64,000 nucleotides of DNA from Candidatus Moraniibacteriota bacterium (GCA_013334575.1 JAAXXG010000003.1:12699-76698); one strand, 5' to 3'; numbered from the stretch's first letter, positions 42,506-58,665 are shown. Notes: generated by a model from the sequence alone, not told the origin. Program-made: numbers and translations.

Positions 42506-42604
42506 CGTGACCCGGACCGCGTTTCCTGATAGAGTGGGGAAAATACGTAGCGGGAATCAATGAAGCGTATCCGGACTATCGTCCTTACCGGCGGGCCGTG
42601 CGGC
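42506..42604 (+). repeat. Copy 3 (~100 bp) of the kinase promoter plus first ~30 codons
   Basis: It is a near-identical paralog of 41742-41846. Confidence 0.8.
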
Positions 42605-42691
42605 AAAAAAGGGCCGGTCACCTCTTTTGCCCGGAGTGGGATCGCGATAGTGTCGGTATCGATAAAAGTTGCATGACACTTTTCTGCAGGA

Positions 42692-43795
42692 ATGTTTTTG
42701 GAACTTATTCGATCAATTTTTATGGAAAAATTTTTTACACAAGAAGTCAATGCGACCGGAAAGAGTATTGAGAAAGGGAGCGATTTTTTTGGGAGAATCG
42801 AAGAGCACTCTCGCGCCTTTGATCGTGAGACTGCTGATACGCGCAAGCGTTCTCGGGATGAAATACGAGAGCACTGGCGTGAGACGGAATGGAAAATCGG
42901 GGATACGACAGTGCATGCCATTGGCGTGATGCATGTGCCGGAGACGTTTTTGGAGTATCGCAAAGAAATCGAGAACGCAATCAAAGAAAGCGATATTGTT
43001 GTGAATGAATTCGCTCCCGAAGCGTTGGGTTTGTATGACAAGGAATCCGTACCGCACCTGCAACGGACGGCATCCCTGTTCAATGAGCATTATAATTTGG
43101 AACAATTACGGCAGATATATTTGAAGAACGAACGAGAATGGAATACGGGCATGTTTCATCATGAGATAGAGCTTCTTACGGCGAAATATGATAAAGATAT
43201 GGCGCTTATGGATCTCAATATGACCAAGGATTGTGAAGATTTGCTTCAGGGGAGCTCTTTGTATGCTCATGCTGCGGAACAGTCTGATGAGAATGCCGCA
43301 ACGCTCAAAAAACTCGGTTTGTACGCCGGGGCGGCCGCTTCAGTTGCCGGCGCCGTGGCGCAGAAACCCATGTCACGGAGGAAATTTTTGCGGCTTGCCC
43401 TTCTCGGTACCGGAGCGACGATAGCCGGAATAACACCAAAGCTGACTGAAACCCCGCCTCAAACAGCCATTAAGAAAGAGATGTCGATGGAGGACAAGCG
43501 GGTCGGCATGGTATTGCGTGATTTGCAAATCGCCGATTCTTTGCAGCGTCTTGCGGGGCTCGGGTATAAAAATATCACGTTTATTTACGGAGTCGGTCAT
43601 CTGTCCGGAGTCGGGAAACATCTGCATAATCCGGAAGAGTTTAGAAACATGTTGGATGAAAAAAAGGAACAACTTCATGCGTGCAATTCCGACGCCTTTC
43701 GCATATACCGTCTTGCGGACGGAGAAAATACGTCGGAAAAATTCGTCGCTTCGGACAAAAAGGTTTGGAAGCGCATCTCACCTGCAAGGGTTTAA
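42692..43795 (+). CDS. TraB/GumN-family protein
   Basis: The N-terminal motif reads TTVHAIGVMHVPETF (hxhVGxxHV). The C-terminal motif reads IYGVGHLSGV. It is a low-GC gene. Confidence 0.45.
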   Translation: MFLELIRSIFMEKFFTQEVNATGKSIEKGSDFFGRIEEHSRAFDRETADTRKRSRDEIREHWRETEWKIGDTTVHAIGVMHVPETFLEYRKEIENAIKESDIVVNEFAPEALGLYDKESVPHLQRTASLFNEHYNLEQLRQIYLKNEREWNTGMFHHEIELLTAKYDKDMALMDLNMTKDCEDLLQGSSLYAHAAEQSDENAATLKKLGLYAGAAASVAGAVAQKPMSRRKFLRLALLGTGATIAGITPKLTETPPQTAIKKEMSMEDKRVGMVLRDLQIADSLQRLAGLGYKNITFIYGVGHLSGVGKHLHNPEEFRNMLDEKKEQLHACNSDAFRIYRLADGENTSEKFVASDKKVWKRISPARV

Positions 43796-43916
43796 TTTCA
43801 GAAAACGTACCTTGTACTTCTCGAATGAAGTATCAGGGTCGAATTTTCGGGAGGCAAGGAACCGTGACCCGGACCGCGTTTCCTGATAGAGTGGGGAAAA
43901 TACGTAGCGGGAATCG

Positions 43917-44549
43917 ATGAAACGTATCCGGACCATCGTCCTTACCGGCGGGCCGTGCGGCGGCAAGAGCACGGTCCTGCGGGCCTTGCGCGAGGAATTC
44001 GGCGATCGGCTGGTGCCGGTGCCGGAGGCGGCGACCGTCCTCTTCGAGGGCGGTTTTCCGGTTCCCGGCCGGGACATCGAGTGGAGCGAGGAGTGGCAGG
44101 AGGCGTTCCAACCGGCCGTGCTGGCGCTGCAGGCCGCGCTCGAACAAAGTCACGCGCTCTTGGCCGCGGACCGGGACGTGGTGCTCGTGTGCGACCGGGG
44201 CCGGCTCGACGGGGCGGCGTATACCGAGGGCGGCGTCGGGGCGTTCTGCCGGATCCACGGGCTCGACGAGACCGAGACGCACGGACGGTACGACCTGGTG
44301 ATCCATCTGGAGTCGCTTGCGACGAGCCATCCCGAACGCTACGGGACCGAGGGGAACGCCGCGCGCTACGAGTCGCTCGAACAGGCGCAGGCGCTTGAGC
44401 GCGCGACGCGGGAGGCGTGGGGGAATCATCCACGGCGGAAAATGATCGGCGGGGAGCGGGGGATGGAGGGAAAGATCGAGGATGTGGTCGCGGTCGTGCG
44501 CGAACTGCTCGGCGAGGGCTCGGAATATTCCGATAAGGGACAACGATAA
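43917..44549 (+). CDS. AAA_28/NadR-like P-loop NTPase (predicted nucleoside/nucleotide kinase), full length
   Basis: The Walker A is LTGGPCGGKST. It is 210 aa. Its promoter and 5' end exist in three further upstream copies. Confidence 0.65.
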   Translation: MKRIRTIVLTGGPCGGKSTVLRALREEFGDRLVPVPEAATVLFEGGFPVPGRDIEWSEEWQEAFQPAVLALQAALEQSHALLAADRDVVLVCDRGRLDGAAYTEGGVGAFCRIHGLDETETHGRYDLVIHLESLATSHPERYGTEGNAARYESLEQAQALERATREAWGNHPRRKMIGGERGMEGKIEDVVAVVRELLGEGSEYSDKGQR

Positions 44550-45442
44550 TGAACTGGATCGTCCTTTCGCTCATCGCACCGCTGTTCTGGGCACTGACGA
44601 GCTTTGTCGACAAATACGTCCTCGGGAAGTATTCCCGCGGGCTGGCGGATTTCGTGTTCTTCTCGTCGCTCGGAAGCTGGCTGCTCTTTTTCGCGCTGAT
44701 GCCGTTTTCCGGGATGCCGGTTCTTAGTCTTCGGCTCCTTATTCCGGTCGCGACCGGAATGATGCTCATGTATTCCTACTGGCTCTACGGCAAAGCGCTC
44801 GGGGAGGGGGATGTCTCCACGACCATCATCCTGCTGTACAAGCTGATTCCGGTGGTCACGGCGGCGCTTGCGTTCGCGTTTCTCGGGGAGAGCCTCGCTC
44901 CGAAGGAACTTCTGGGATTCGTCATCGTCCTCGCCGGGGCGACCGCCGTTTCGTTCGAGCGGGGCGGCAAACTGCTCGTCCCGGGCCTTCCCGCCATCTT
45001 CGGGGTCGTGGTCCTCTGGTCGGTCATGACGCTTCTCATCGACTACGGATTGGAGGAAATCCCGTTCTGGCAGTACCTCATGCTCGACAGTCTCGGTTCC
45101 GCGGTCGCGGGACTTTCCCTGTTTCTTGTCCCGTCGCTACGGCGGGAGATGGTGGCGGGCATCCGGAGCGCCGGCGGCGGGAAGTATGCCTGGTACGTCG
45201 GGAACAATCTCCTCGACTTCGTCGGGCAGATGAGCGTCAAGAAGGCGGTCATGCTTGCTCCGGCCGTGAGCCTGGTGACGCTCGTCATCCAGGTCCAGTC
45301 GTTCTACGGGATCGTCATCGGGGCGCTGCTGACGGTCGTGGTTCCGCAGGTGATCCGGGAGGATATCTCGCCCCGTTCCCTGGTGCGGAAGGTCATCGGC
45401 GCCGCTGTCATGTTCTCCGGCATCGTCCTTCTGGTCGGGTGA
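44549..45442 (+). CDS. EamA/DMT-superfamily transporter
   Basis: It is ten-TM with duplicated EamA-like halves. Its start overlaps the upstream stop. Confidence 0.65.
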   Translation: MNWIVLSLIAPLFWALTSFVDKYVLGKYSRGLADFVFFSSLGSWLLFFALMPFSGMPVLSLRLLIPVATGMMLMYSYWLYGKALGEGDVSTTIILLYKLIPVVTAALAFAFLGESLAPKELLGFVIVLAGATAVSFERGGKLLVPGLPAIFGVVVLWSVMTLLIDYGLEEIPFWQYLMLDSLGSAVAGLSLFLVPSLRREMVAGIRSAGGGKYAWYVGNNLLDFVGQMSVKKAVMLAPAVSLVTLVIQVQSFYGIVIGALLTVVVPQVIREDISPRSLVRKVIGAAVMFSGIVLLVG

Positions 45443-45507
45443 CGGAACCCGCTTCCGCGAACGGTGGTCGTATAGTATTCTGAGGAGGCAGCCGATAGGC
45501 ATACCGT

Positions 45508-46896
45508 ATGAAGAACACCGCGACGAACCTGTCCTCCGCGGCTGGGAACGGAAACAGGAAGCGGCTTCCCAAGGCCGAGCGCATCGCGATCAGCCTGTAC
45601 AAGCGCACGTTGAACCGGAAGCGGTTCGGCCGGTTTCTCCGTATCCTGGGTCCGGGGCTCGTGACCGGGGCGGCAGACGACGACCCGTCGGGCATCGCGA
45701 CCTATTCGCAGGCGGGCGCCATGAACGGCTTCGGGCTCCTGTGGGCGTTCCCGCTCATGTACCCGCTTCTTCTCGGTGTACAGGAGAGCTGCTCGCGTAT
45801 CGGCGCGGTCACGGGCAAGGGGCTTGCGGCGGTCATCAAGGAATACTACGGTCGGCGCATCCTGCTGTTCGCGGTCCTGCTCGTGGTGTCGGCGAACGCG
45901 GTGAACATCGGTGCCGATCTCGGCGCGATGGCCGAGGCGACCCGGCTGTTCGTCGATCTGCCACAGATCTTCCTCGCGGTCCTGTATGCCGCGATCGTGG
46001 TGCTGCTGGTCGTTTTCGTGAACTATCGGACCTACGCCCGGATCCTCAAGTGGCTTGCGCTCTCGCTCCTGGCGTATCCGCTGACGGCATTCATGGCCGG
46101 GCTCGACTGGGCACAGGTTCTCCGGAGCACCTTCCTTTCGGTTCCGCGCCTCGACGCGGAGACCATGTACATCCTCGTCGGTATCATCGGGACCACCGTA
46201 TCGCCCTACCTGTTCTTCTGGGACACGTCCGAGGTGGTGGAAGAAGAGATCGCGAAACACAACCGGGCGTCGATCGGCCGCGATCCCAAGCCGACCGCGC
46301 GGTTTCTCCGCAATCTCCGTATCGACAACCTCGTCGGGATGACCGCCGCCAACCTGACGGCGTGGTTCATCGTCGTGGCCTGCGCCTCGACCCTTCATCT
46401 TGCCGGAGTGACCGAGATCGGCACTGCCGCCGAGGCGGCGCGCGCGCTCGAACCGATGGTCGACGGGTTCCCGCATGCGGGGCTCGTGGCCAAACTCGTC
46501 TTCTCGATCGGTATCGTCGGAACGGGGCTTCTCGCGGTTCCGGTGCTCGCGGGATCGTCGTCGTACGCGATCAGCGAGGCGTTCGGCTGGAAGGAAGGAC
46601 TGTCCCGAAAGTTCCGTAACGCCCGCGGGTTCTATGCCGTCATCGCGGTCGCGACCTTCGTCGGCCTCGCGCTCAATCTTTTCGGCGTCGACCCGATCAA
46701 GGCGCTCGTCTTCACGGCGGTCTTCAACGGTATCGCCGCGGTACCACTCCTTTTTCTTATCGTGCGGATCGGCAACGATGCCGCGATCATGGGTGACTAC
46801 CGCAACGGCCGGTGGTCCAACCTGTCCGTCCGGCTGGCGGCCGCGACCATGACCGTCGCGGTAATCGGGTTGTTCGTGTCGATGCTTGTCCGATAG
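45508..46896 (+). CDS. mntH: NRAMP-family divalent metal (Mn2+/Fe2+) transporter
   Basis: GPGLVTGAADDDPSGIATYSQAGA resembles the NRAMP TM1 metal-binding DPGN region. It is about eleven-TM. Confidence 0.7.
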   Translation: MKNTATNLSSAAGNGNRKRLPKAERIAISLYKRTLNRKRFGRFLRILGPGLVTGAADDDPSGIATYSQAGAMNGFGLLWAFPLMYPLLLGVQESCSRIGAVTGKGLAAVIKEYYGRRILLFAVLLVVSANAVNIGADLGAMAEATRLFVDLPQIFLAVLYAAIVVLLVVFVNYRTYARILKWLALSLLAYPLTAFMAGLDWAQVLRSTFLSVPRLDAETMYILVGIIGTTVSPYLFFWDTSEVVEEEIAKHNRASIGRDPKPTARFLRNLRIDNLVGMTAANLTAWFIVVACASTLHLAGVTEIGTAAEAARALEPMVDGFPHAGLVAKLVFSIGIVGTGLLAVPVLAGSSSYAISEAFGWKEGLSRKFRNARGFYAVIAVATFVGLALNLFGVDPIKALVFTAVFNGIAAVPLLFLIVRIGNDAAIMGDYRNGRWSNLSVRLAAATMTVAVIGLFVSMLVR

Positions 46897-46909
46897 CGTT
46901 CAGATATAT

Positions 46910-47446
46910 ATGAAGACCGAATTCGAAGGGCGGATACTCGGAGTCGATCCGGAAGCACTCGTGCGGATACTCGAGGAGCTCGGGGCCGAGAAGGTCGGCG
47001 AGTACCTGTATCGGCGCCATATCTACGACCTCGAACCGGGAAAAGACGAGGCGTGGATCCGACTCCGGACCGACGGCCAGACGACGACTCTGACCATCAA
47101 GGAACGCGAGCGGGACGCCGTGGACGGGATGAAGGAACTTGAATTTCCGGTCGGCGACTTCGACACAGCGCATCTTTTCGTCGAACGTCTCGGACGGCCG
47201 GCACGATGGAAACAGGAAAACCGGCGGATCCGTTACGTGCTCGATGGGATCGAGATCGATATCGACTCATGGCCGCTCATCCCGCCGTATCTCGAGGTGG
47301 AGGGGGATTCCGTGGAGGCTGTCGAACGGATGATCGAGCGGTTGGGATTTTCGCTTTCCGATATGGTCACGTTCGGGACCAAGGCTATCTATGAGAACTA
47401 CGGCATCGACCTGCATGCGATTCCGGATTTGCGGTTCGAGGAATGA
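46910..47446 (+). CDS. CYTH-domain protein (class IV adenylate cyclase/triphosphate tunnel metalloenzyme), paralog 1
   Basis: The N-terminal ExExK-type motif reads MKTEFEGRIL. IEIDIDSWP...YLEVEG is the C-terminal CyaB-like region. An upstream ATG at 46886 is an alternative start. Confidence 0.6.
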   Translation: MKTEFEGRILGVDPEALVRILEELGAEKVGEYLYRRHIYDLEPGKDEAWIRLRTDGQTTTLTIKERERDAVDGMKELEFPVGDFDTAHLFVERLGRPARWKQENRRIRYVLDGIEIDIDSWPLIPPYLEVEGDSVEAVERMIERLGFSLSDMVTFGTKAIYENYGIDLHAIPDLRFEE

Positions 47447-47521
47447 AAACTTTCCGCCGTCGGAACCGTTTTATGGCCAAGCGGCGGCTTTTGTCGCCCG
47501 GGTAACGTGTAAACGGAACGT

Positions 47522-48238
47522 ATGACGAAGCGGAAGATCGGTATCGGTGCGGCGATGATCGCGATACCCGCGGTCGCGTCGCTTCTGGTCGCGGGACAGG
47601 CGAGCGCGTTCGGTTTCGGTGACGGAGGAAGCAGGAGCGGTAATCGCGTCCAGTCGGAGGAAAGGGACGGTCGCGGTCCTGTTGGAGGATTCCGTTCGGA
47701 GGAAGCCGTTTCCGCCTGTTCGGGAAAGAGCTCGGGAGATGACTGCTCCTTCTCCATGACGCGTCCGGGGCAGAGCGAGACAACCTCGGTCTCCGGCACG
47801 TGCCGCAACGTTCCGGCAGGGAAGACGGATTCGTCCGAGTCGCTTTCCTGCATGCCGACTCCGAAGGATGGTGACGGCTCGATGGAACGCGTCCGTTCCG
47901 AGGATCGCGACGGGCGCGCCGAGAACCTGAAGGAGCGGAAGCAGGCCGAAATCAATCGGATCGAGACCCGGGTTCAGAAGATCATCGATTTCCTGAAGTC
48001 GAAGGATGTCGATACGGCGACGATAGAGGGATACTTCTCGACCTTCAAGGCGAAGGCGGATACGGTAATCGCGAAGGTCGAGGCGCTGCAGACGCTCCTT
48101 TCGACGGACAATCCGAGCGAGAGCGATCTTGCTTCGGCCCGGACGGCCGTCCGTGACGCGGGAAAAGACATGATCTCGTACTACAAGGACACGCTCCGGA
48201 CGGCTCTCAAGAGCGCTCTCGACGCCCTCAACGACTAA
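47522..48238 (+). CDS. Secreted hypothetical protein (signal peptide, Ser/Asp-rich, C-terminal coiled-coil)
   Basis: It has a signal peptide MTKRKIGIGAAMIAIPAVASLLVAGQASA. Confidence 0.5.
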   Translation: MTKRKIGIGAAMIAIPAVASLLVAGQASAFGFGDGGSRSGNRVQSEERDGRGPVGGFRSEEAVSACSGKSSGDDCSFSMTRPGQSETTSVSGTCRNVPAGKTDSSESLSCMPTPKDGDGSMERVRSEDRDGRAENLKERKQAEINRIETRVQKIIDFLKSKDVDTATIEGYFSTFKAKADTVIAKVEALQTLLSTDNPSESDLASARTAVRDAGKDMISYYKDTLRTALKSALDALND

Positions 48239-48242
48239 CGCT

Positions 48243-48545
48243 ATGAATCTCGACAGGAAGAAGATGACGGTGATCGCGGGATCGGTCGGAGGCGTGTTGC
48301 TGATCGCATTGCTTGGATGGATACTCGTCTCGCGGACGGTGCCCGGCAGCTCCGTCGACGGCGCCCGGCAGGCGGTTCAGGACCGATCGAAGGAAGTCGG
48401 TGCTCCCGAAACCGGAACCGCTTCGGACGACGCTGCTGCCGATGCGGCGGCACGGAAGTCCGTGTCGACCAGGACGGAGGCGAAGCAGGCCCTGTCGGAA
48501 CTCGATAGCGCGGTCGATTCCGTCGGGACAGGAACCGGGGAGTAG
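48243..48545 (+). CDS. Small membrane-anchored hypothetical protein
   Basis: It has one N-terminal TM helix. Confidence 0.4.
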   Translation: MNLDRKKMTVIAGSVGGVLLIALLGWILVSRTVPGSSVDGARQAVQDRSKEVGAPETGTASDDAAADAAARKSVSTRTEAKQALSELDSAVDSVGTGTGE

Positions 48546-48575
48546 GAAGGTGTCGCCACTGTCACCAGACAGAAA

Positions 48576-48607
48576 AAGAGGCCTCGGAATGCTCCGGGCC
48601 TCTTTTT
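48576..48607. terminator. Bidirectional terminator AGAGGCCTCGG-aatgct-CCGGGCCTCT flanked by A-run and T-run
   Basis: It lies between a + gene and a - gene that converge. Confidence 0.6.
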
Positions 48608-48616
48608 TGCGAGGAT

Positions 48617-48967
48617 TCAGGACGTAATCACCTTGCCAATCTTCGTGAGGAGCTGCTTTTTCCCCATGGCTCCAACAAGCGCTCTCTCCATCGGTATCGG
48701 AAGGCCATTTCTGAATACGACATATTGCGGAATGACCCTTATTCCGTATCGGCCGGTCAGTTCCGGCTCCTCATCGACGTCGACGGAACAGATATCGAAG
48801 TGCGGGTCGTTTTCTTCGATCATTTCTTTTATGACGGGAAGCATTTCCCAGCATGGTCCGCACCAGGCGGCCGCAAAAAAGACGACGACAGGCTTCTTGT
48901 TTTGAAGGACGGCCTCTTCGAAGGTTTCTCCGTTGACGGCATTGTACGGGTTCTCTTGCTGGTTCAT
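48617..48967 (-). CDS. Thioredoxin (second paralog)
   Basis: It has the WCGPC motif and is 116 aa. Confidence 0.85.
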   Translation of the reverse strand: MNQQENPYNAVNGETFEEAVLQNKKPVVVFFAAAWCGPCWEMLPVIKEMIEENDPHFDICSVDVDEEPELTGRYGIRVIPQYVVFRNGLPIPMERALVGAMGKKQLLTKIGKVITS

Positions 48968-49211
48968 GGCGGTATGGGCTTTTTGTTAACGGAATCTATG
49001 TCTGGTCGACAAGCGATTAAAGCATTTCTCTTTTATGCTGTAAAGCGGAATCCGGTTCGTGAATCCGAAACAGGAAATGAAGGACTTTCATGGCCTTTAA
49101 AAGCCTAAAAGAGTTCGCGAAATCGGATCTTTGGATCCGAAACGGGGATTCGAGGCTTTACACCAGTACGGCGGTAAGGGAAAATAGGGAGGTAATCATT
49201 CGAAGACGTAT

Positions 49212-49712
49212 ATGGCGACACAGGAGAATCTGATGGCGGCGTTCGCCGGCGAAAGTCAGGCGAATCGCAAGTACCTCGCGTTCGCGAAGAAGGCGGCGGC
49301 CGAGGGGTATCCGGCGGTAGCGAAACTTTTCCGCGCGGCAGCCGAAGCCGAGACGGTGCACGCGCACGCACATTTCGCCGCGGCCGGCGGCGTGCAGGAT
49401 ACCGTCGCGAATCTCGAGGCGGCGATCGCAGGGGAGCAGTACGAGTTTACGGATATGTATCCGGGCTTTATCGCCGAGGCCGAGAAGGAGGGTCATGCGG
49501 CTGCACTCAAGTCTTTCAGGAACGCCGACGCGGTCGAGCACGAGCACTACGAACTCTATCGGCTGGCGCTCGAGGCGATCAAAGCCGGGCATGATGTCGA
49601 GGACCTTGCGATCTATGTCTGTCCGGTCTGTGGGCACACCGAGGTCGGCGTCCGGTCGGAGAAGTGTCCGATCTGCGGCGTCCCGGGAAGCACGTTCATC
49701 GAGGTGAAATAA
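49212..49712 (+). CDS. rbr: Rubrerythrin
   Basis: It has a ferritin-like diiron domain with ExxH motifs and a C-terminal rubredoxin-like CPVCG...CPICG. Confidence 0.85.
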   Translation: MATQENLMAAFAGESQANRKYLAFAKKAAAEGYPAVAKLFRAAAEAETVHAHAHFAAAGGVQDTVANLEAAIAGEQYEFTDMYPGFIAEAEKEGHAAALKSFRNADAVEHEHYELYRLALEAIKAGHDVEDLAIYVCPVCGHTEVGVRSEKCPICGVPGSTFIEVK

Positions 49713-49727
49713 TTGAACGCTTGAAAC

Positions 49728-49752
49728 GGAAAGCGGCCCTCGGGCCGTTTTC
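49728..49752 (+). terminator. Terminator AAGCGGCCC-tc-GGGCCGTTTT
   Basis: A GC stem with a T-run. It is duplicated at about 52227-52251. Confidence 0.55.
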
Positions 49753-49833
49753 TTTCGATACGTCCTTGTTTTCGGCGCTTTACACCTTTCGGGCGATGCG
49801 GGAAAATGAACGTGAGTAATCGTGGTGAACGAT

Positions 49834-52158
49834 ATGGGCGAGAGTCATCAATTCATACCGATCCGGAACGAGGTCGTGCGACGGCGGGAAACGAAACTTC
49901 CGCGTCCTTTGACCGCGGATGAGCGGGGGGAAGACGATGGGAAACCGGAAGAGATGTCCCTTACGGACCACTGGAAGACCCTTCGGTTGTCCGTTCAGGA
50001 GAAGTCCTCAGAACGGACCGATGGTACGATACTGCCGGAAAACGTGAAATTATTGAACGAACTCATCACGCCGGAACTGATGGAGGGGTATCGGGCGATT
50101 CTTCGGGAATTCAATGTCAGGGCGAACAAGACGGAGGAGCATCCCGAGAGGGAATTTATCGACACCGAGGAAGATGGAATCGTCGGAAAGATTGATGCGT
50201 GGACGGATGCGCTTCTGCGGGAAGTCGGGGAAAAGTGCGAGGTCGGCCTTGATGAGTCGGATATCGAGGAACTTCGTGTCCAATGCCGGCTTCTGTTCGA
50301 TTCGTTCGGGAACGTGATGAATACGAATTCCCTCGAGCGGGACATTTCCGACTCTCTTGGCACGGCGGAAGGCGGCTCTGCCGGCGATGCGGAGGTGGCG
50401 AGACTGGTCGAGAAGCTCCGAAGGAAGTATCCGTTCGAGCCCGATGAGATGGAACTGCTTGTCGACCTCGTCAGGTCTGAGAAAGGCAGAGACAATGAGT
50501 ATTCCATGAGAATCCTCGCGGAGACAGTGTCCCGTCTTTGGACGGAATACGGTCTTGACCGGAAGCATGGGGATATGGCGAAGATATCGCTCGGGTACCT
50601 GGCAGCGAAGGGTGCCGAGAGCTTCGCGCCGTCCCTGTTTCAGGGGATAATGGCGAATGGCATGTTCGATGCGGCGGTTTTCATCGAATATCTCGGCCTG
50701 GAGAAGTTGTCCGAGGTCATCTCGACGAAAAACGATATCGAGCTCGCGAAGGTCATGGTCGATGTCAATCGGCAGATAAACCGACGGATAACCGATTCCC
50801 TTTTCTTTCAGGAATTCGAATTCATCCATGACAAATCGCTCGGCGAGGTATATGCCGCCTTGGAACGCGGGAAGGAATCCTCGGAGCAGATGCTTCGCGA
50901 GGTCGTATCACAGTTCGCTCCGAGCCTTTCGGGAATCGTGATGTCGCTCGCGTTCCTGACGAAGATCAATCCCATCCTCGGTGGGATCGGGGTCGGGAGT
51001 CTCCCGGTCATGTATGCGATTGCGAAGAAGCAGAACGATCAGATCTGGCCGATGTACGAGCGGGAACGTCGGGAAGGCGAGAAGATCGCGACCAGACTCG
51101 ATGCCGTGAAGCGCGGATTCGAGGAGGTGAAGACATTGGCGAATGTCGCAGGGATCGCTTCGAACGTCCGGGAACAGATGGACGCGATGGACTCTTTGGC
51201 GCTTCAGAGGTTCATAGAAGAGCGGAAGATGAGCATGATACGGCGTATCCCGTTCGATGTCTCGAGTGTCATAGCGGCCGGCGTCGGCGGAGCGCTTCAG
51301 CGGGCCGGGATGATTTCCGGCGGCGCGATCCTTTCGAATATCATGTATTCCGGGCAGCTGAATTGGCCTGTCAAGGAACTCGTGGAACTCTATTTCAACC
51401 GGTTCTCGCGATATGTTCAGGACATCCGACGCCTGGACGAGATCCTGGGGAAATACGAGACGTTGGATCTTCCGGACGGGGAGAGGGAAGGAGATCGCGT
51501 TCCGGTTTCCGATCTTCCGAACCTCGACATCTCCATCAAGGATCTCCGATATCGGGATATTCTTCGCGGCGTCGATCTTGACGTGAAACAGGGGGAATTC
51601 GTCGTTATCGCAGGAGCGTCCGGTGCCGGAAAATCAACGCTGCTGAGGAATCTGACCGGTCTCTATCGTCCGGACGGCGGCGAAGTAACGATCGGAGGTG
51701 TCCGGAACGACCGGGTGAAGCGATTTGGCAAGGAGTCCGTCTATTCGGTCATGTCGTACTGCAATCAGAGTCCGCAGTATTTCGAGGGGATGACGCTGAG
51801 GGAGAATCTGACACTCTGGTCCGGGAACGAGGCGGATGACGCGGCGGTGCGGCGGATACTTTCCGATCTCCGTCTCGATGCTCTGTCGGACCGTCTCGAC
51901 GAGGAAGTGAAACATCTGTCCGGCGGTGAGCGGGTCCGTATCGGTGTCGCCCGGACGCTTATCAAGGATGCGAAGATCCTCCTGTTCGATGAGCCGACCG
52001 CGAGTCTTGATTCGCAGGCGGCGGCCGAGGTCCGGCGGATACTCACGGAAATTCGAGAAAAGTACCCGGAGAAGACCGTTATCTGCGTGTCGCACGACGA
52101 GGAGTTGATACGGTCCAGCCCGAGAGCGGTGCGTCTCGAAGATCTGCAGCGCTCCTGA
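49834..52158 (+). CDS. ABC-type ATPase with atypical ~540-aa N-terminal domain (degenerate exporter TMD)
   Basis: The C-terminal NBD has Walker A GASGAGKST, the signature LSGGERVRIGVAR and Walker B ILLFDEPTASLD. The N-terminal region has few hydrophobic helices. A GTG at 49822 is an alternative start. Confidence 0.65.
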   Translation: MGESHQFIPIRNEVVRRRETKLPRPLTADERGEDDGKPEEMSLTDHWKTLRLSVQEKSSERTDGTILPENVKLLNELITPELMEGYRAILREFNVRANKTEEHPEREFIDTEEDGIVGKIDAWTDALLREVGEKCEVGLDESDIEELRVQCRLLFDSFGNVMNTNSLERDISDSLGTAEGGSAGDAEVARLVEKLRRKYPFEPDEMELLVDLVRSEKGRDNEYSMRILAETVSRLWTEYGLDRKHGDMAKISLGYLAAKGAESFAPSLFQGIMANGMFDAAVFIEYLGLEKLSEVISTKNDIELAKVMVDVNRQINRRITDSLFFQEFEFIHDKSLGEVYAALERGKESSEQMLREVVSQFAPSLSGIVMSLAFLTKINPILGGIGVGSLPVMYAIAKKQNDQIWPMYERERREGEKIATRLDAVKRGFEEVKTLANVAGIASNVREQMDAMDSLALQRFIEERKMSMIRRIPFDVSSVIAAGVGGALQRAGMISGGAILSNIMYSGQLNWPVKELVELYFNRFSRYVQDIRRLDEILGKYETLDLPDGEREGDRVPVSDLPNLDISIKDLRYRDILRGVDLDVKQGEFVVIAGASGAGKSTLLRNLTGLYRPDGGEVTIGGVRNDRVKRFGKESVYSVMSYCNQSPQYFEGMTLRENLTLWSGNEADDAAVRRILSDLRLDALSDRLDEEVKHLSGGERVRIGVARTLIKDAKILLFDEPTASLDSQAAAEVRRILTEIREKYPEKTVICVSHDEELIRSSPRAVRLEDLQRS

Positions 52159-52171
52159 CGGTCCGAAACCC

Positions 52172-52251
52172 CGGGGCGTCCCCGGCAACACGTTCATCGA
52201 GGTGAAATAATTGAACGCTTGAAACGGAAAGCGGCCCTCGGGCCGTTTTTC
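52172..52251 (+). repeat. Duplicate of the rubrerythrin 3' end plus terminator (~80 bp)
   Basis: CACGTTCATCGAGGTGAAATAATTGAACGCTTGAAACGGAAAGCGGCCCTCGGGCCGTTTT is identical to 49691-49752. Confidence 0.8.
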
Positions 52252-52416
52252 ATATCGTGAAACCGCCGGGTCGCCCGTATCCGGTCCCGGCCGGAGACGG
52301 TGAAGAACCGCCGGCGCCTTTACTTCCTCTTCGGAAGGGAGTAGAAATACGGTACACCGGCATATCCTGCCGACGGTCGTCGTGATCTCCTTTCCTGAAC
52401 GGATCACCCGAATCGT

Positions 52417-53418
52417 ATGTGGCCGAAATCGTTCCGGGTACTGGCCCGGGGAGGTGTCAGGATTTTCTGCGACGGGATGACCTGTCCGAGGCATATCGGT
52501 CGGGACGTGTTCGTGACGCTGGCGTTCGCGCTCGGCGCTGTCGGATTCCTGTATTCTGCGGGAAGTATCGGGATCGGAAAGCCCGGAGCTGCCGACGTGT
52601 CCGGCGACACTGCGGGCTCCGGAGCGACGGCCATGCTTCTTTCCGAAGAGGACGTCGTCGCCGAAGTGGAGCGGATCGTAGCGCCGGTCGATACCGGTTC
52701 GTGGAAGCCGTACCGCAACGACTACTACGGATTCGAACTCCGGTATCCGGCGGGGTGGCAGACGCCTTCCGGGCAGATCGCCCCGAGGGGGTCGAAGTGG
52801 GAATACCGATTCCGGTTCAGGAAGCCGGTTCCGGCAGGCGGGACCTATGTCGGGTTCGATGTCGTCGTCTACGATGTCGCCAAGGCGAAGGAACTGTCCG
52901 GGACGGACGAATATCCGGCGCTCCGGAACGAGGAGGCGAAGGGTACGGAGCGGTGCGCGACCATCGACCGATACGTCGTCGATGCCGGGGACTATCCCCT
53001 GAGCGAGATCTACGTTCCCCCGGGTGACGACTGCTATCGGCCGACGCTGTTCCTGTCCCTCGTCCGTGACCGGTATATCTACGATGTCGTCCCGATCACC
53101 GGGGAGAGTGCCGTTTCCGGTCCCGATCCGAGGGCGTCGATCAATATGGACCTTCCCGAACTGTATTCCGTCGGTTCCTCATTCCGGCTTATCGATATCG
53201 TGCGTCCGAAACCCGTACCTCCGAAGCCTCGGATCACCGCTCCGCACCCCGTGTCCTATAAGAAGGTGAACGGTCGGCTGGTCTGCGCGAAGAAACACGA
53301 TCATCCGTCGAAAAGCGGAAAAGGGAAGCATCTCGACATGGAGTGTTGCCTGGATCCCGACGAGTATCCGAATCCCTGGTGCTACTACCCGCCGGAGAAA
53401 TACGGGAAGTACCTCTGA
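52417..53418 (+). CDS. Hypothetical membrane-anchored exported protein with Cys/Pro-rich C-terminus
   Basis: The ORF is 333 aa. An internal start at 52477 gives an N-terminal TM helix. Confidence 0.45.
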   Translation: MWPKSFRVLARGGVRIFCDGMTCPRHIGRDVFVTLAFALGAVGFLYSAGSIGIGKPGAADVSGDTAGSGATAMLLSEEDVVAEVERIVAPVDTGSWKPYRNDYYGFELRYPAGWQTPSGQIAPRGSKWEYRFRFRKPVPAGGTYVGFDVVVYDVAKAKELSGTDEYPALRNEEAKGTERCATIDRYVVDAGDYPLSEIYVPPGDDCYRPTLFLSLVRDRYIYDVVPITGESAVSGPDPRASINMDLPELYSVGSSFRLIDIVRPKPVPPKPRITAPHPVSYKKVNGRLVCAKKHDHPSKSGKGKHLDMECCLDPDEYPNPWCYYPPEKYGKYL

Positions 53419-53462
53419 TCGCTTTACGGCCGAGGCGGAGGGGGGGTAGCGCTTGCAGAGGG

Positions 53463-53479
53463 CTAAAAAGTACCTGACC
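53463..53479 (+). repeat. Truncated M1 tail (CTAAAAAGTACCTGACC) preceding an M2 element
   Basis: It shares the M1 3' motif. Confidence 0.4.
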
Positions 53480-53632
53480 TGCCCTGTAGAAAAGACTTTT
53501 GTAGGATTGTCATTCCGGCCTCCGTCCGAGCATGCGCCGGCCAAGAGCCGGAATCTATGTCTTGGATTCTGGCTTTGACCCGGGATGACCGTACGGAAAA
53601 TCTGAAACGCGGAGATGATTTCTACGGAGCAT
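53480..53632 (+). repeat. M2 MITE-like structured element, direct orientation
   Basis: It is about 90% identical to 32012-32165, including the CTGTAGAAA / TTTCTACGG termini. Confidence 0.6.
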
Positions 53633-53792
53633 TCCCGACCTCTTTTCTGATTCAATTTCCGACACCTGTCACGGGAGGAACAGACCGAAAGAATCTTTCG
53701 ATTCCACGAATGATTTGGTGGCAGAAGTTATATATTACCAAAAAATAAGGCCTTCGCGAGGTGAAGGCCTTTAAGAATCGCGCTGATTCGGG

Positions 53793-54128
53793 TCAGAGTC
53801 CCTTATTCAGCAGTCCGCGTTCGACACTTTCAATCATGGATTGACCGGGGTCTATGAAATGGCTGTCCGTGAGCGACTTTCCGTCGGTTGTGCGGATCTT
53901 CATGTTCATGACGTACGTTCCCTTTTGTTCACCGGGACCGATGTCCGCAACGATTTCTGAAACGGATGGGTGCCGTTCAGTTAATTGTTGCAGGCCTATT
54001 TGGGACAGAGCCGCTTTTCCGCCGAACATGGAGATGTCGAGCTTAATCGGGTTCGGCGACTCGGCCTTGGCGGTTGTCGGTCCGAGCAGGACGGCGAACA
54101 GGAATGTCGCGGCAAGTGTTTTTTTCAT
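53793..54128 (-). CDS. Small secreted hypothetical protein (signal peptide)
   Basis: It starts MKKTLAATFLFAVLLGPTTAKA and is 111 aa. Confidence 0.5.
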   Translation of the reverse strand: MKKTLAATFLFAVLLGPTTAKAESPNPIKLDISMFGGKAALSQIGLQQLTERHPSVSEIVADIGPGEQKGTYVMNMKIRTTDGKSLTDSHFIDPGQSMIESVERGLLNKGL

Positions 54129-54264
54129 GGTCGATATCTTTTTGTTTTTTGAACGTACCCACCTTCATGTTGGGCGTATGTACTCTATAGCAGAAACAAG
54201 ATTTCTTGTCAATGATCACCGATGTGACCAGTGGTGCTTTACGACGGCCAAGGAGCGGAGGAAA

Positions 54265-55017
54265 ATGAGGGTGAAAGAGGAATATGTTTTGCGTATGCGT
54301 TTCGGGTACATGTCCGGTTGGCGCGGTGATCTGCTCTCGGAATTTGCCTTCGCGAAACGGCATTTCGATTTTACCGAAGTGACCATCGTGCCGGACGCGC
54401 TTGCGGCCGTTGAACGGACACTTCCTGAGCTTGTTGCCGCGCTCGACGGATTCCCGACGCTCGGGCATCTGCACTGGGACTTCGTGGGGTTCGACGATAT
54501 TGAAAGGAATATCCGCATACTGGAGCGGCTGGGTGTCGGCCTGATAACGATGCATCCGTTCGAAAATGTTGGAGTTCCGGAAAATATAGACATCATGGAG
54601 CGCGTTTCCGACTGTTGTCGTGGACGAGGAATCCGTCTTATGATCGAGAACGTCTCGAACGAACCCTATGCGACCATGGAGGGAATGGCTCCACTCCTGT
54701 CGGGTATTTCGAATGTCGGACTGACGTTCGATGTCGGTCATGCGAACAAGATCGGCGAGCTCGGGAATTTTCTTGACAGGTTCGGTGACCGTGTCGGACA
54801 TGTCCATCTCCACGACAATGTCGGGAAACGTGATCACTTATTTTTCTCCGATCGGAACCGGCTCAAAGCTAATCTCGAGAAACTCAGGGGAATCGGCTAT
54901 GACGGGACGGTCACGCTCGAGACCTTCGCTGCCATGAAGGACGGGCGGAGCGTCTCTCTCGGCTTCGACGAGATCAAGTCGTTTCATCCCGTCCAGGTCG
55001 AAATGCTCCGGAAATAA
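54265..55017 (+). CDS. Sugar phosphate isomerase/epimerase (xylose-isomerase-like TIM barrel)
   Basis: It has the metal-binding motifs IENV, FDVGHAN and HVHLHDN. An AGGAGCGGAGG ribosome-binding site lies upstream. Confidence 0.6.
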   Translation: MRVKEEYVLRMRFGYMSGWRGDLLSEFAFAKRHFDFTEVTIVPDALAAVERTLPELVAALDGFPTLGHLHWDFVGFDDIERNIRILERLGVGLITMHPFENVGVPENIDIMERVSDCCRGRGIRLMIENVSNEPYATMEGMAPLLSGISNVGLTFDVGHANKIGELGNFLDRFGDRVGHVHLHDNVGKRDHLFFSDRNRLKANLEKLRGIGYDGTVTLETFAAMKDGRSVSLGFDEIKSFHPVQVEMLRK

Positions 55018-55057
55018 TCCGCTTTACAACCGGGGCGGGGGGGACTTGAAAAATCAA

Positions 55058-55094
55058 AGCCGGGCAATAGTACGTCTATGCCCGGCTGGTTTTC
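55058..55094. terminator. Bidirectional terminator AGCCGGGCA-loop-TGCCCGGCT
   Basis: A 9-bp stem lies between the convergent genes ending at 55017 (+) and 55107 (-). Confidence 0.55.
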
Positions 55095-55106
55095 GAAAAT
55101 ACCGAT

Positions 55107-56120
55107 TCAGCTTATCTCGCGGTACAGGCAATGGCCGTCGCATGCCTCCGGAAGATGCTCCGGGAATCGCGCAGACAGCTCCTGAAGGACTTCGGAATAC
55201 GTCTGTCGCAGGAGATTCCCGATGACGGTGTCGTTGCCGGGGCACGGCGTCACGTCCCCGTTGCCGAGAATTTGAAGCCGTTCGATACATGCGGCTGTCC
55301 CGAAATTGTTGAGCACGGGGTGGACGAAGCCGAAACTTGCGTCGATATCGCGAATCTGCTGGCGCATCCAGGCTCGATCCTCAAGTGAGACGATGAGGCT
55401 CTGGTCGACTTCTCCTCGCCCACTTCTTCCCGTGGGAAGAAAGAACGAAAAGATGACCCAGACATTTTGTTCGCGGCACGTACGCAGCACGGCAGGGACC
55501 TCGCGGACATTGCGGCTCGTTACCACCATGTCGAAACCGAGTCGGGTCGTCCCATCATTGCGGACTGCATTGAACCCCTGCCTTTTGAGCAGCTCGAACG
55601 CCTGGTTTCGTTTCTCGAAATAACCCGGCTTTTCGTCTCCGACCATTTCGTCTTGGTAAGCCTGGTCCTGCAGGCTGTCGAGTTTCAGCACGACGCTTGC
55701 ATTGAGACCATACAGCCTGTGAACAAATTCCAGATCGGTCAAGTGCGCGGAACCCTCGCTGAAGACAACGGGAATGAGGCCGAGTGAGTGTGTAGTCCCC
55801 ACGATATCGAAGAAGTCCCGATCGAGTGTCGGCTCGCCCTCTCCGATGAAGTTGACGGTCTTCGGCCCCGACCAAGCGACCTCGTTAAGGATCAGCTTGA
55901 TCTGGTCGAGTGTGAGAGTCCGCTTTTTCTTGTCCGTAAAGCAGTGAGGGCAGTTGTGCGGACAGCCTTCCGTCATCGCGCAAAAATCGATCGTGTGCGT
56001 TCCGGCGCGAAACTTCGCGTCCGTGATGTTCCATCCGTTCAGAACGGCTCCGATCCCGATAGGGGTCCGGTTGCCGAGCTGAAAGTATCCTGGTCCATAT
56101 GACTGTGACATGGTCACCAT
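55107..56120 (-). CDS. Radical SAM protein with SPASM-like C-terminal Cys cluster
   Basis: The CPHNCPHC motif is of CxxxCxxC type. It has a GGEP-like GEGEPTL motif. The C-terminus carries CPGND...CDGHC. Confidence 0.65.
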   Translation of the reverse strand: MVTMSQSYGPGYFQLGNRTPIGIGAVLNGWNITDAKFRAGTHTIDFCAMTEGCPHNCPHCFTDKKKRTLTLDQIKLILNEVAWSGPKTVNFIGEGEPTLDRDFFDIVGTTHSLGLIPVVFSEGSAHLTDLEFVHRLYGLNASVVLKLDSLQDQAYQDEMVGDEKPGYFEKRNQAFELLKRQGFNAVRNDGTTRLGFDMVVTSRNVREVPAVLRTCREQNVWVIFSFFLPTGRSGRGEVDQSLIVSLEDRAWMRQQIRDIDASFGFVHPVLNNFGTAACIERLQILGNGDVTPCPGNDTVIGNLLRQTYSEVLQELSARFPEHLPEACDGHCLYREIS

Positions 56121-56214
56121 CCCTTTGTTTACTTGATGAAGTTGAAAAGAAACTGATGTCTAGTTATAGAAGATTTCCGACATCACGTCAAGTCCGCCGT
56201 AAGCCGGAGCCTGC

Positions 56215-56262
56215 ATGCTTTACAGTATATGCTTCGGGGAGTAGAAAGGGGGTGAAAGGGGC
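56215..56262 (+). repeat. Conserved leader repeat (GCTTTACA...GGGGAGTAGAAAGGGGGTGAAAGGG), copy 1
   Basis: It is about 85% identical to 58579-58626. Both copies precede a gene start by 20-40 nt. Confidence 0.55.
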
Positions 56263-56282
56263 AGTATACATTTGAATGGTCT

Positions 56283-57809
56283 ATGTTTTATAAGCATCAT
56301 CTGAAACATCTCGGCGTGAAGTATTCTTTTCCGAAACTTTTATCGGAAAAGGATTTTTCTGAGTGGGTGCGGGAAACGAAGGCTCCTGATGATGACGTCC
56401 TTGAGGCATTGCGCGCGGTCGATCTGGGAAAGAGGTATGGCGCGATGAATGCCCTCATGGAAGAACGGACAAAAAATATCAACGCGTTGTTTCTCGAGGA
56501 ATTGCCGGAATTTTTTGAGAATGAATCGGGAGGGAAGGAGGACGCGAAATACTTCAGTGATTTTTTGCAGGCCCATTTTTCCCGAGAGAAACATGTGCGG
56601 GTCCTGATCGTCCAGATGGTCGGGGAAATGTTGCTCGGAGCGCAGGGCACTCCCGATGGATTGAAGGATGATCTGAAAGTGAGGAAGATCATAAATGCCG
56701 AGCAAGCGGAGATCTGGCGAACCACGTTGGACTATCTCTCCCTTGCGGTCGAGGTCGTGGACGCCGCGAGCTATGTCGCCGACGACGCTTTCGACAAAAC
56801 ACTTTCACGATTCGGTGTCGATACCCCGTACAAGGTGCACGGTGATTTCGCAGGTCCGATAGGGGCCGATATCCTGTTGCACTCGCTTGGGAACTATATT
56901 TTCTATAAGACGATACGTGAGCACGAGCGCGGAGTCGAAGCCGGCTATCTGACGGAATCGGGTAGCGTGTCGACGAACGACAATCCGTATTCCTTGAAGT
57001 GGAAGGACGACACGACGGGCGTATATGTCTATATCAATCCGGAGCAGTACATGGACGTGTGGGAAGTCTGGTCGTGGGCGTGGTATCTGATCAATTCGGG
57101 ACAGATACGCGATCTGTATGAATTCGGACTCGAGGATATCGGGTCATTCGATGTCGACTCGTATATGTCGCGGGCCTATCGACTGTCCGGAGGGCTTATC
57201 GAGTGTGCCACGCATCTTTCGGCGGCCTTCATGGGATGCGGGTATTGGGAAGGTCGGCAGCATATCGGAAAATGGGCGGCGATATACGGCACGATGACGC
57301 AGATACGCAACGATTTTTACGATTACGTCCTGTATTCCGTCGAGGGTCCGAAGAAACACGATTTCGTGAAGGAGACGCACGAAGACGTCTCCTTGGGACG
57401 CGTCACACTGCCGCTCGGGTTCGCATATGCTCAGGCTGACGACGCGGACCGGAAGGCAATGCTTGAACTGGCGTCTTCCATGAAGGAAAAGAAGTCACAG
57501 GGCATGGAAATCCCCGAACAGGATAGGCTGAAGCTGAATGGTCTGATCGCGAAAAACGGTGGATTTCTCGCATCGAAAAAAATCATCTATAACATGGTGA
57601 CGTGGGCGGTGGATGAACTGATGCCGCTTCGGAAGGATTTTCAGGATAGCGGACGGTATTGGGATCTAGTCGCCTGGACCGTCGCGTCGCTGAATATCCT
57701 GAATATCGATCCGGAACGTACCGATCCTGGTGCCGGGTCGGTCGGCAATATGTTCGATTTGAAAGCGATTGCTGATTTTCTGAAACAGGCCTCGGTAAGC
57801 AATAAATGA
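56283..57809 (+). CDS. Isoprenoid-synthase-fold (trans-IPPS/terpene-synthase-like) domain protein, motifs degenerate
   Basis: It has a DDxxD motif (ADDAFD) and a second partial motif TQIRNDFYD. It is alpha-helical. Confidence 0.3.
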   Translation: MFYKHHLKHLGVKYSFPKLLSEKDFSEWVRETKAPDDDVLEALRAVDLGKRYGAMNALMEERTKNINALFLEELPEFFENESGGKEDAKYFSDFLQAHFSREKHVRVLIVQMVGEMLLGAQGTPDGLKDDLKVRKIINAEQAEIWRTTLDYLSLAVEVVDAASYVADDAFDKTLSRFGVDTPYKVHGDFAGPIGADILLHSLGNYIFYKTIREHERGVEAGYLTESGSVSTNDNPYSLKWKDDTTGVYVYINPEQYMDVWEVWSWAWYLINSGQIRDLYEFGLEDIGSFDVDSYMSRAYRLSGGLIECATHLSAAFMGCGYWEGRQHIGKWAAIYGTMTQIRNDFYDYVLYSVEGPKKHDFVKETHEDVSLGRVTLPLGFAYAQADDADRKAMLELASSMKEKKSQGMEIPEQDRLKLNGLIAKNGGFLASKKIIYNMVTWAVDELMPLRKDFQDSGRYWDLVAWTVASLNILNIDPERTDPGAGSVGNMFDLKAIADFLKQASVSNK

Positions 57810-57820
57810 AATCAACGGCG

Positions 57821-57920
57821 AAGCGGTTCAGGAAGACCTGAAAGCCTTCCTCCTGTCACTTGGCATCGGCACAGACGACATCGTCACCAAAGGCTACGAC
57901 ACGCTATTGTATGAGAAGGG
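57821..57920 (+). repeat. Orphan copy (~100 bp, ~92% identity) of the 3' end of the CYTH gene at 59101-59200
   Basis: It would encode ...AVQEDLKAFLLSLGIGTDDIVTKGYDTLLYEKG*. It sits between the 56283 gene and the S51 paralog. Confidence 0.8.
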
Positions 57921-58626: not shown

Positions 58627-58665
58627 TATTCCGTTCCGATGGTGGGGTATGTCATTAGTACCGAC

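Follow-up and report, generated by a model that had tools for sequence, protein, structure and literature searches.

How did the end of one gene come to lie behind another? In a stretch of 64,000 nt from a Candidatus Moraniibacteriota bacterium (GCA_013334575.1, JAAXXG010000003.1:12699-76698), called the window here and numbered from its first base, the rubrerythrin gene rbr is followed by a gene for an ABC-type protein, and the last codons of rbr recur with their terminator directly after that gene. The second copy is interpreted below, with slightly more belief than doubt, as a recombination scar: an insertion-duplication in which homologous recombination used the conserved rbr 3' end as its anchor, with later trimming. 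Bacteria of the Candidate Phyla Radiation (CPR, or Patescibacteria) have tiny genomes with few recognisable mobile elements, and gene gain and shuffling are poorly documented in them.

The repeated end of rbr

A repeat search of the window found two directly oriented copies of a 75-nt sequence, identical at 72/75 positions (96%). The final 60 nt are exact (49692-49751 and 52190-52249), and this block occurs twice in the 64-kb window, while 0.00 occurrences are expected from 100 dinucleotide shuffles. An earlier interpretation of the locus, referred to as the sequence-only reading, had proposed a self-comparison of the window as a check. Self-comparison of the whole window recovered the repeat in two copies only, with no third one. 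The anatomy described by that reading was right, but its coordinates needed correction: the original lies at 49677-49751 and not at 49691-49752, and the copy at 52175-52249. From repeat to repeat, the unit measures 2498 nt.

In each copy, the closing 36 nt of rbr, which make up 12 codons with the stop, are followed by a 39-nt 3' flank that contains an intrinsic terminator. The recurrence of the rbr 3' end with its terminator, as claimed in the sequence-only reading, is thus confirmed, with a hairpin in both copies. The same holds for the diverged remnant of C-terminal rbr codons: the right copy translates as GVPGNTFIEVK-stop, compared with GVPGSTFIEVK-stop in rbr. All three mismatches fall in the coding part. 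Two are synonymous (CCG>CCC and GGA>GGC) and one replaces Ser by Asn (AGC>AAC). They are confined to the first 15 of the 75 nt, for which the chance under uniform decay is (15/75)^3 = 0.008. Clustered and mostly synonymous mismatches of this kind would be expected if the copies represent two alleles of a working gene and if recombination or conversion had its boundary at about 52190. By gapped alignment, the remnant can be extended weakly to 52161 (GTCCGA), with a score of 31.5 against a null of 13.2 +/- 1.5. Beyond this extended remnant, the flanks upstream and downstream align no better than shuffled sequence. The right-hand remnant starts 3 nt past the ABC stop and is out of frame with the ABC gene.

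The source gene is intact. Its product is a 100% match to the NCBI entry 'rubrerythrin family protein [Candidatus Moranbacteria bacterium]' and has the ferritin-like diiron domain and the C-terminal rubredoxin-like CxxC...CxxC motif of a rubrerythrin (C-terminus CPVCGH...CPICGVPGSTFIEVK). With the A-tract upstream of it, the rbr hairpin may be a bidirectional terminator, and the second hairpin now appears placed to terminate the ABC transcript. The left-type repeat sequence is represented by CCCGGGAAGCACG...GGGCCGTTTT. Its direct joining to TCATATCGTG would be an empty-site or excision junction, and the string predicted for the empty site (rbr-terminator-p333, p333 being the next gene downstream) is GGCGTCCCGGGAAGCACGTTCATCGAGGTGAAATAATTGAACGCTTGAAACGGAAAGCGGCCCTCGGGCCGTTTTTCATATCG. 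A 37-nt similarity (76%) between the regions upstream of rbr and ABC was considered as part of the duplication and rejected, as it corresponds to the lineage promoter consensus, CGCTTTACA..N17..(T)AGAAA/GAAAAT. This consensus is also found upstream of rbr (49157-49185), of p333, of the second CYTH gene (58639-59229), of the HEC-01 block described below and of an ABC homologue in the relative L005.

An exact 60-nt repeat exceeds common k-mer sizes, and the Logan contig L174 breaks 30 nt inside it, as would happen at a branching node of an assembly graph. With a repeat-to-repeat unit of 2498 nt, one could therefore imagine that a 2.5-kb circle, or a segment of another strain sharing the 60-nt repeat, was threaded into the chromosome path. 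A search with p333 led to the sister metagenome-assembled genome (MAG) GCA_013336155.1, whose contig JAAXUE010000016.1 (L173) is 98-99% identical to window 39774-56407. This independent assembly has rbr and ABC, and it agrees with the window base for base in both repeats, the three mismatches included, and in both junctions. The same structure in two independent assemblies makes an artefact very unlikely and shows the event to be older than the strain split. Moreover, the right copy has its own diverged 5' part and is thus not a collapsed repeat, the ABC gene matches the host in base composition and promoter type, and analogous structures occur in unrelated assemblies (L001 and L178; JGI and NCBI). 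The sequence-only reading had named an assembly artefact of one copy as a possible objection. With an identical sister MAG, it is not supported and scarcely credible.

Table 1 Features of the rbr-ABC-p333 region, and the transposase of the variable island, in window coordinates
Feature	Position	Strand	Basis or remark
IS3-like transposase (HTH_23 + rve + rve_3), in variable island	33350-34228	-	Pfam
rbr, intact, 166 aa	49212-49712	+	Pfam PF02915 Rubrerythrin (1.4e-23) and PF21349 RUBY_RBDX
Hyper-divergent patch	49502-49640	+	11 single-nucleotide polymorphisms (SNPs) in 139 nt (7.9%); all rbr differences from L173
Left repeat copy: last 12 rbr codons and 39-nt 3' flank	49677-49751	+	Repeat search
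rbr terminator hairpin: 11-bp stem, 4-nt loop, T-run	49728-49753	+	Folding energy -23.3 kcal/mol, z-score -2.4; terminator-like match
Promoter-like site of ABC, TTTACA-17-GAAAAT	49779-49807	+	Promoter scan; fits lineage consensus
ABC-type protein, 774 aa, cargo between repeats	49834-52158 (ATG 49834)	+	Pfam ABC_tran and partial ABC_membrane
rbr remnant (pseudo 3' end)	52161-52210	+	Gapped alignment; translation GVPGNTFIEVK-stop
Right repeat copy	52175-52249	+	Repeat search; identical in L173 at 9759-9833
Second terminator hairpin	52226-52251	+	-21.6 kcal/mol, z-score -3.05
Hyper-divergent patch, far side of unit	52289-52536	+	16 SNPs in 248 nt (6.5%)
p333, Moranbacteria-specific membrane-anchored protein, right flank of unit	52417-53418	+	No Pfam match; sister-strain copy 98% identical

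The ABC gene is the sole open reading frame (ORF) within the insert (49752-52174). Its start was taken at the ATG used in public records; the longer ORF would encode 778 aa. Exact look-ups with the rbr protein and with this 778-aa form gave no match. The C-terminal nucleotide-binding domain gives a strong match to PF00005 (9e-32). The match to PF00664 is partial (profile positions 65-274 at ABC residues 308-517), the N-terminal ~300 aa are acidic and without Pfam match, and all NCBIfam exporter matches are far below their cut-offs. The protein is atypical, with only part of an exporter membrane domain recognisable; nonetheless, its 774-aa architecture is retained across many CPR lineages. There are 258 homologues across the CPR at 50-68% identity. 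The GC content at third codon positions (GC3) is 0.70, compared with 0.62-0.85 in neighbouring genes and 0.30-0.50 in clearly foreign blocks. The ABC protein is 68% identical to its nearest relative; for core genes, the comparison with L001 gives 76% for AAA_28, 69% for Nramp, 68% for CYTH and 88% for radical SAM (rSAM). The gene is compositionally native, and its identity to the nearest relative is in line with core-gene divergence. The PADLOC matches of the protein reflect generic ATPase similarity only.

The search for a dedicated mobility function was largely negative. No recombinase is encoded in the 2.4-kb insert. Elsewhere in the window, the one candidate from a Pfam scan of 60 ORFs is a DDE rve transposase at a distance of 16 kb (Table 1). 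Terminal inverted repeats at the insert ends (49752 and 52174) were absent among the 25 longest inverted-repeat pairs of 48500-53500, and the insert ends have no common arm sequences. Among the hallmarks of an integrative element, the identical core in the repeats (60 nt) was found, whereas a recombinase, foreign composition and accessory cargo were not. The sequence-only reading had held the repeat to be too long for a transposase target-site duplication. This judgement stands: 75 nt with non-identical copies compare with 2-15 bp for transposons. A scan for relatives of the repeat or of ABC in viral contigs found none, so the region is not viral.

The rbr locus in other lineages

The contexts of rbr were compared in eight lineages besides the window and L173, with rbr genes 76-92% identical. 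At 90% identity, the rbr cluster has 13 members, of which the contexts of four were read; the clusters of ABC and p333 have two members each (window and L173). Upstream of rbr, synteny is conserved (Nramp ... p238 homologue, a ~105-aa gene, rbr). When the sequences were compared, inter-lineage homology stopped at the rbr stop codon. The genes that follow are HisS, HisZ-like and M42 peptidase in L001, a small ORF and then NT5C in L002-4, an insertion sequence (IS) fragment with rve_3 in L166-7, PaaX_M in L168-9, MsrB and MsrA in L170-2, S66 peptidase in L177, and PaaX_M in L178. The position after rbr, which differs in nearly every lineage, is a hot spot for gene replacement. In L178, the last 72 nt of rbr are 97% identical to the window, compared with 86-90% upstream, which is consistent with exchange through these 72 nt. 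No second copy of the coding 3' end of rbr was found in 40 control loci, i.e., rbr genes at most 69% identical and from other phyla, taken from a metagenome-contig scan.

In all eight lineages, the ABC gene is absent after rbr, and the lineage specificity of the insertion that the sequence-only reading had assumed is thereby established. Its suggestion to look for the empty site at orthologous loci was answered in part: the eight lineages lack ABC after rbr, but no rbr-terminator-p333 junction was seen. It had also stated that the presence of both copies in relatives throughout would speak against an insertion. On this point the outcome is split, since the closest strain has both copies and all more distant relatives differ.

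ABC homologues in five other genomes (L005-L009) adjoin neither rbr nor p333. A profile scan of genome contigs retrieved four true relatives of ABC (L006-L009, 42-60% identity), the rest being generic ABC ATPases, and none of the four has flanking repeats. The homologue in L005 was considered as a second bracketed cassette (65-nt repeat, 79% identical) and rejected, since its motif (CCCTCAAATCGAAAAC...AAGAAGGCC...) is also present in L168. The L005 flanking motif is a dispersed terminator-containing intergenic family and is uninformative on ABC mobility. This ~65-nt intergenic terminator element (CCCTCAAATCGAAAAC...AAGAAGGCC..GGCCTTCTTTTTCGTCGAAAT) recurs in and between related genomes, at 327-391 and 2851-2915 in L005 and at 9409-9451 and 17369-17433 in L168.

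A parallel scar is present in L001, whose rbr is 81% identical to that of the window. A 3' remnant of rbr, 48-55 nt long and 87.5% identical to the lineage's own rbr end, occupies 12519-12573, immediately behind the M42 peptidase stop codon; beyond it come a terminator and a thioredoxin gene in convergent orientation. The remnant closes a 4.1-kb insert with HisS, HisZ-like and M42. The two copies differ by 12% and share an identical core of at most ~15 nt. In the remnant, the codons TGC CAT GTC encode Cys-His-Val, as in the functional rbr of L002, L166 and L170; the intact rbr of L001 has Cys-Gly-Val, like the window. Furthermore, the intact L001 gene is a mosaic. Its nt 1-400 are 88-92% identical to L002, whereas over its last 100 nt the closest sequence is the window (88%), and identity to L002 is 80%. 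The switch in informative sites falls at about nt 399-438, close to the beginning of the remnant near nt 435. These observations indicate that a surrogate rbr 3' end arrived with the cargo on incoming DNA and that a different 3' end was displaced downstream. A classification of the remnant as pure 'H type' was rejected because only the Cys-His-Val codons match, and the remnant is a third allele. It is a pure copy of no sampled allele, so that which copy was resident is not provable. In the window, the rbr 3' region (49646-49690) contains a small inverted repeat, TCGGA-GAAGTG-TCCGA, and a direct GGCGTCC pair 30 nt apart (49647 and 49677). The right arm of the inverted repeat marks, exactly or nearly, the start of both remnants (window and L001).

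The use of the same gene end in two lineages, with unrelated cargo, could also be expected of a site-specific recombinase acting in trans. In such a scheme, an att-like site, possibly TCGGA-GAAGTG-TCCGA, would be part of the rbr 3' end, and cassettes would arrive with a surrogate rbr end. Several features agree with it: GTCCGA lies at or near the start of both remnants, the arrangement in L001 is the classic one of a surrogate 3' end, and the repeats are att-like in length and include a 60-nt identical block. Some known elements insert into protein-coding genes and rebuild the end that they interrupt (PMC4482086). However, there is no integrase in either cargo (window or L001) or among the 60 window ORFs, where the DDE rve is the only candidate. 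The cargo genes are housekeeping-like and of native composition, the L001 copies lack an identical core longer than ~15 nt, and common arm sequences are missing at the insert ends. In addition, the AAA_28, CYTH and tRNA-Ser remnants described below have variable inner boundaries, and the strain-level indel is explained by plain homologous recombination. Integration by a trans-acting recombinase is thus considered improbable. The sequence-only reading had left open whether an integrase or recombination mediated the insertion. Recombination stands, but the integrase is not supported, given the missing recombinase, the native cargo, the allele-like differences outside the 60-nt block, the lack of a core in L001, whose scar does not demonstrably have the same boundary, and the similar remnants with variable boundaries at other genes. 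A more general proposal, viewed as very doubtful, regards the rbr 3' end with its inverted repeat as the docking site of an unrecognised trans-acting recombination system of Moranbacteria or CPR that inserts promoter-bearing cassettes with surrogate ends. If it were true, the AAA_28, CYTH and tRNA-Ser remnants would be footprints of one cassette-exchange system and not of generic homologous recombination.

Strain-level recombination and the probable origin of the scar

The comparison with the sister strain gave information on recombination around the unit. Over 6 kb (47435-53425), the window and L173 show 49 differences, which are strongly clustered. Two hyper-divergent patches lie on either side of the unit (Table 1), and the left one stops ~6 nt short of where the duplicated rbr segment may begin in its extended form. 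Zero differences are found in 49641-49886, and 8 (0.30%) in the 2648 nt of the block 49641-52288, within which both repeats and ABC lie. These divergent patches, which abut both ends of the unit, indicate recombination tracts ending at the unit edges. A comparison with outgroups was ambiguous as to which strain imported the patches. Farther to the right, L173 has 1362 nt with an extra gene of 276 aa (L173 11012-12373) in place of window 53426-53501.

A second site documents how such repeats behave. The promoter and 5' end of the AAA_28 gene (43917-44549) are present in four direct copies, at 40119-40379, 41738-41837, 42500-42604 and 43858-44120. The copies have a common outer boundary and inner ends after ~100, ~105 and 261 nt, and a SoFic-like gene (40519-41661) and the p190 and p367 genes lie between them. 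A 2.0-kb segment of the window (41838-43862), bounded by ~100-nt repeats of this kind, is absent in L173. The single AAA_28 repeat left there is a hybrid that combines the left portion of copy 2 with the right portion of copy 4. Homologous recombination thus acts on ~100-nt direct repeats at the strain level.

Gene ends are displaced at other places as well. The CYTH gene at 58639-59229 has a 106-nt 3' remnant at 57814-57919 (source 59095-59200), which lies between a polyprenyl-synthase-like gene, 4 nt past its stop codon, and an S51 peptidase gene. L178 also has a CYTH remnant of this kind, which starts at another point (11764-11904 and 15501-15640). The CYTH alleles are shuffled between remnant and intact copies. 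The tRNA-Ser(GCT) gene (24982-25069) is preceded, ~80 nt upstream, by a truncated copy (24811-24902). This copy agrees with the gene throughout its 5' 25 nt and at 97% of a 38-nt internal block, but it has other sequence in place of the anticodon region and lacks the 3' end. The scar pattern is general in this genome. The gene-internal boundary varies for the AAA_28 copies and for the CYTH remnants (window and L178); the rbr cases (window and L001) may share one.

At four sites (window ABC, L001 M42, window p508 and L173 Nramp), a remnant starts 1-16 nt past the stop codon of the gene before it. The last of these arose by a strain-level deletion. The CYTH gene at 46886-47446 has lost window 46901-47434 in L173 (L173 5008-5018), where the Nramp stop is followed by 4 nt, an 11-nt filler (TATTCGACATC), the last 12 nt of CYTH and the terminator. 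Hence, a single deletion can leave a 3' remnant that abuts an upstream stop codon.

This deletion lends weight to an explanation that dispenses with a foreign donor. A second full rbr would have stood after ABC, either by tandem duplication of an rbr/ABC block or by recombination through the whole gene, and a reductive deletion would then have removed everything from the ABC stop to 36-50 nt before the stop of this second rbr. The same geometry is directly seen in the L173 CYTH deletion, three other remnants start 1-10 nt past an upstream stop, and the 60/60 identity would suit a young intragenomic duplicate. A bias towards deletion is also expected in the small genomes of the CPR. On the other side, at least two to three events would be needed, and the three mismatches are clustered and synonymous-looking, unlike random decay. 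The switch in the L001 mosaic at the start of the remnant, together with the codon of another lineage, requires recombination between lineages, and no genome with two full rbr copies was found among nine lineages. A donor-free duplication and deletion is therefore possible but unlikely.

According to the insertion-duplication reading, donor DNA from a related strain would have carried the rbr 3' end beside the promoter-ABC unit. It would have recombined through a short conserved rbr stretch, either after circularisation, with a single crossover (Campbell type), or in a one-sided homology-anchored event. Such recombination would duplicate the homologous stretch on either side of the insert. Later, non-functional sequence would have been trimmed back to the ABC stop, and the last 36-50 nt and the terminator would have been kept because they now terminate ABC. 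In the exact 60-nt block, donor and recipient would have been near-identical, or gene conversion would have followed. We infer the pre-insertion state of the locus, the gene arrangement of the donor, the circular or one-sided topology, the later trimming and the route of DNA entry. The trimming step is suggested by the remnants that start 1-16 nt past a stop at four sites and by the L173 CYTH deletion. Natural transformation is a plausible entry route because the recombination mediator DprA is encoded in the window (9029-10123).

What has been duplicated is part of the target locus itself, and both flanks of the insert carry it in direct orientation. Taken together with the clustered, allele-like differences, the L001 mosaic, the variable cargo and the recombination seen between strains, this makes insertion-duplication the simplest account. 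In E. coli, single crossovers of truncated circles gave flanking duplications of 109-950 bp and were far commoner than true homology-facilitated illegitimate recombination (HFIR) (PMC3240628).

Several observations weigh against insertion-duplication. A 60-nt exact block beside three mismatches in 15 nt needs an extra assumption, i.e., gene conversion or a donor that was identical there. A pure Campbell model gives no reason for the remnant to start 3-16 nt past the cargo stop; later deletions would fit better, with at least two steps in all. The window and L001 remnants may share their start (GTCCGA) and a 7-nt gap, which, if real, would suggest that the remnant was inherited from a common ancestor or that a specific site is involved. 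In the window, this similarity amounts to 6/8 matches (p ~0.01) and is weak, and the L001 remnant reaches further upstream. Finally, neither a donor nor an empty-site allele (rbr-terminator-p333) was found among the lineages compared: p333 is not adjacent to rbr in more distant relatives, and the nearest strain already has the insertion.

Variable islands, known systems and significance

The partial tRNA-Ser copy lies at the left edge of a variable island of 19 kb. Through this island, a promoter-like repeat family of ~75 nt (family A, TTGCCTTTTCGGCCCGGAGGGGTATGGTGGAGGTG...AAAAAGGTACCTGACC) is spaced at 1-3 kb, with copies at 25161-25223, 27246-27320, 28973-29052, 30851-30936, 31937-32012 and 35314-35360. 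Its end motif is also found at 53464 and at L168 13115, and no Rfam match was obtained for the family at gathering thresholds. A ~187-nt repeat, 82-90% identical, occurs in both orientations at 53464-53649 and 31995-32181 and, inverted, at 27323-27490, and is possibly similar to miniature inverted-repeat transposable elements (MITE-like). Two foreign blocks of low GC (GC3 ~0.30) are present. The first (37259-39953) encodes a C5 DNA methylase and a restriction enzyme of the BbrUII/HgiDII family, and the second (59309-61145) a candidate defence pair, HEC-01A and HEC-01B (AAA_21 ATPase and DUF4276). The promoter region of the HEC-01 block supplies the last nine CYTH codons, which points to an insertion of the block into the CYTH tail. 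Upstream of AAA_28, L177 has HamA and a helicase (Hachiman-like) at the site of the repeats described above. The methyltransferase at 36192-37058 shares 91% protein identity with its counterpart in L168 (12135-12998), compared with 47-88% for syntenic genes of the window and its relatives (70% for Nramp with L168), and the L168 gene is flanked by fragments homologous to the S51 peptidase region of the window. The high identity suggests that the methyltransferase may have been exchanged recently between lineages.

Comparable arrangements have been described elsewhere. As in Campbell insertion-duplication and HFIR, the insert is flanked by direct copies of a short gene-end segment homologous to the target, no dedicated recombinase is needed, and the copies can differ as donor and recipient alleles. 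The duplications are 109-950 bp in E. coli (PMC3240628) and 75-260 nt here. In contrast to those cases, the event at rbr is natural, old (two strains), shorter (75 nt, 60 of them exact) and apparently trimmed, and its donor and topology would have to be deduced. Classical HFIR, moreover, deletes recipient DNA, unlike the duplication seen here.

In the PeSL cassettes of T4-type phages, genes that are not essential and lie in plastic regions have repeated promoter/terminator modules on either side (Arbiol et al. 2010, PMC2839356; Comeau et al. 2014, PMC4122927). Through recombination between the modules, close relatives come to differ by insertions, deletions and replacements, and mini-circles can be set free (PMC2839356). 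The genes of the window are likewise promoter-gene-terminator units, and the AAA_28 repeats act in a PeSL-like manner between strains. However, PeSLs are a dispersed family of one motif, whereas the rbr repeat has two copies in 64 kb, includes coding sequence of the neighbouring gene and lies on a bacterial chromosome. The PeSL pattern is fitted by other families of the window, namely family A and the AAA_28 copies.

Integrase-borne islands at gene ends, such as those at tRNA genes or those of the dusA-specific integrases (PMC4482086), also insert at a conserved gene end and supply a surrogate end, with the displaced end as the far direct repeat; this likeness is clearest in L001. They differ in that no integrase is present here, the cargo is one to three housekeeping-type genes of native composition, and no crossover core is found in L001. 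Transposon target-site duplications share the direct repeats around a gene but are far shorter, as noted above, and come with terminal inverted repeats, a transposase and identical copies. The mechanism proposed here is thus of a known kind. The interest lies in cassette-like gene exchange by homologous recombination and in the re-use of terminators in a CPR genome.

For the biology of these bacteria, the locus and its neighbours show that single transcription units, including housekeeping-type genes, move in and out beside conserved genes via short gene-end homology. Gene ends displaced by this exchange are left behind and re-used as terminators. The site upstream of AAA_28 collects defence genes, i.e., a restriction-modification (R-M) system and SoFic in the window and the Hachiman-like genes in L177. 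In genome annotation, remnants of this type should be treated as pseudo-ends and not be taken for att sites. Furthermore, repeats of 60-100 nt of this kind predict presence/absence polymorphism at the strain level.

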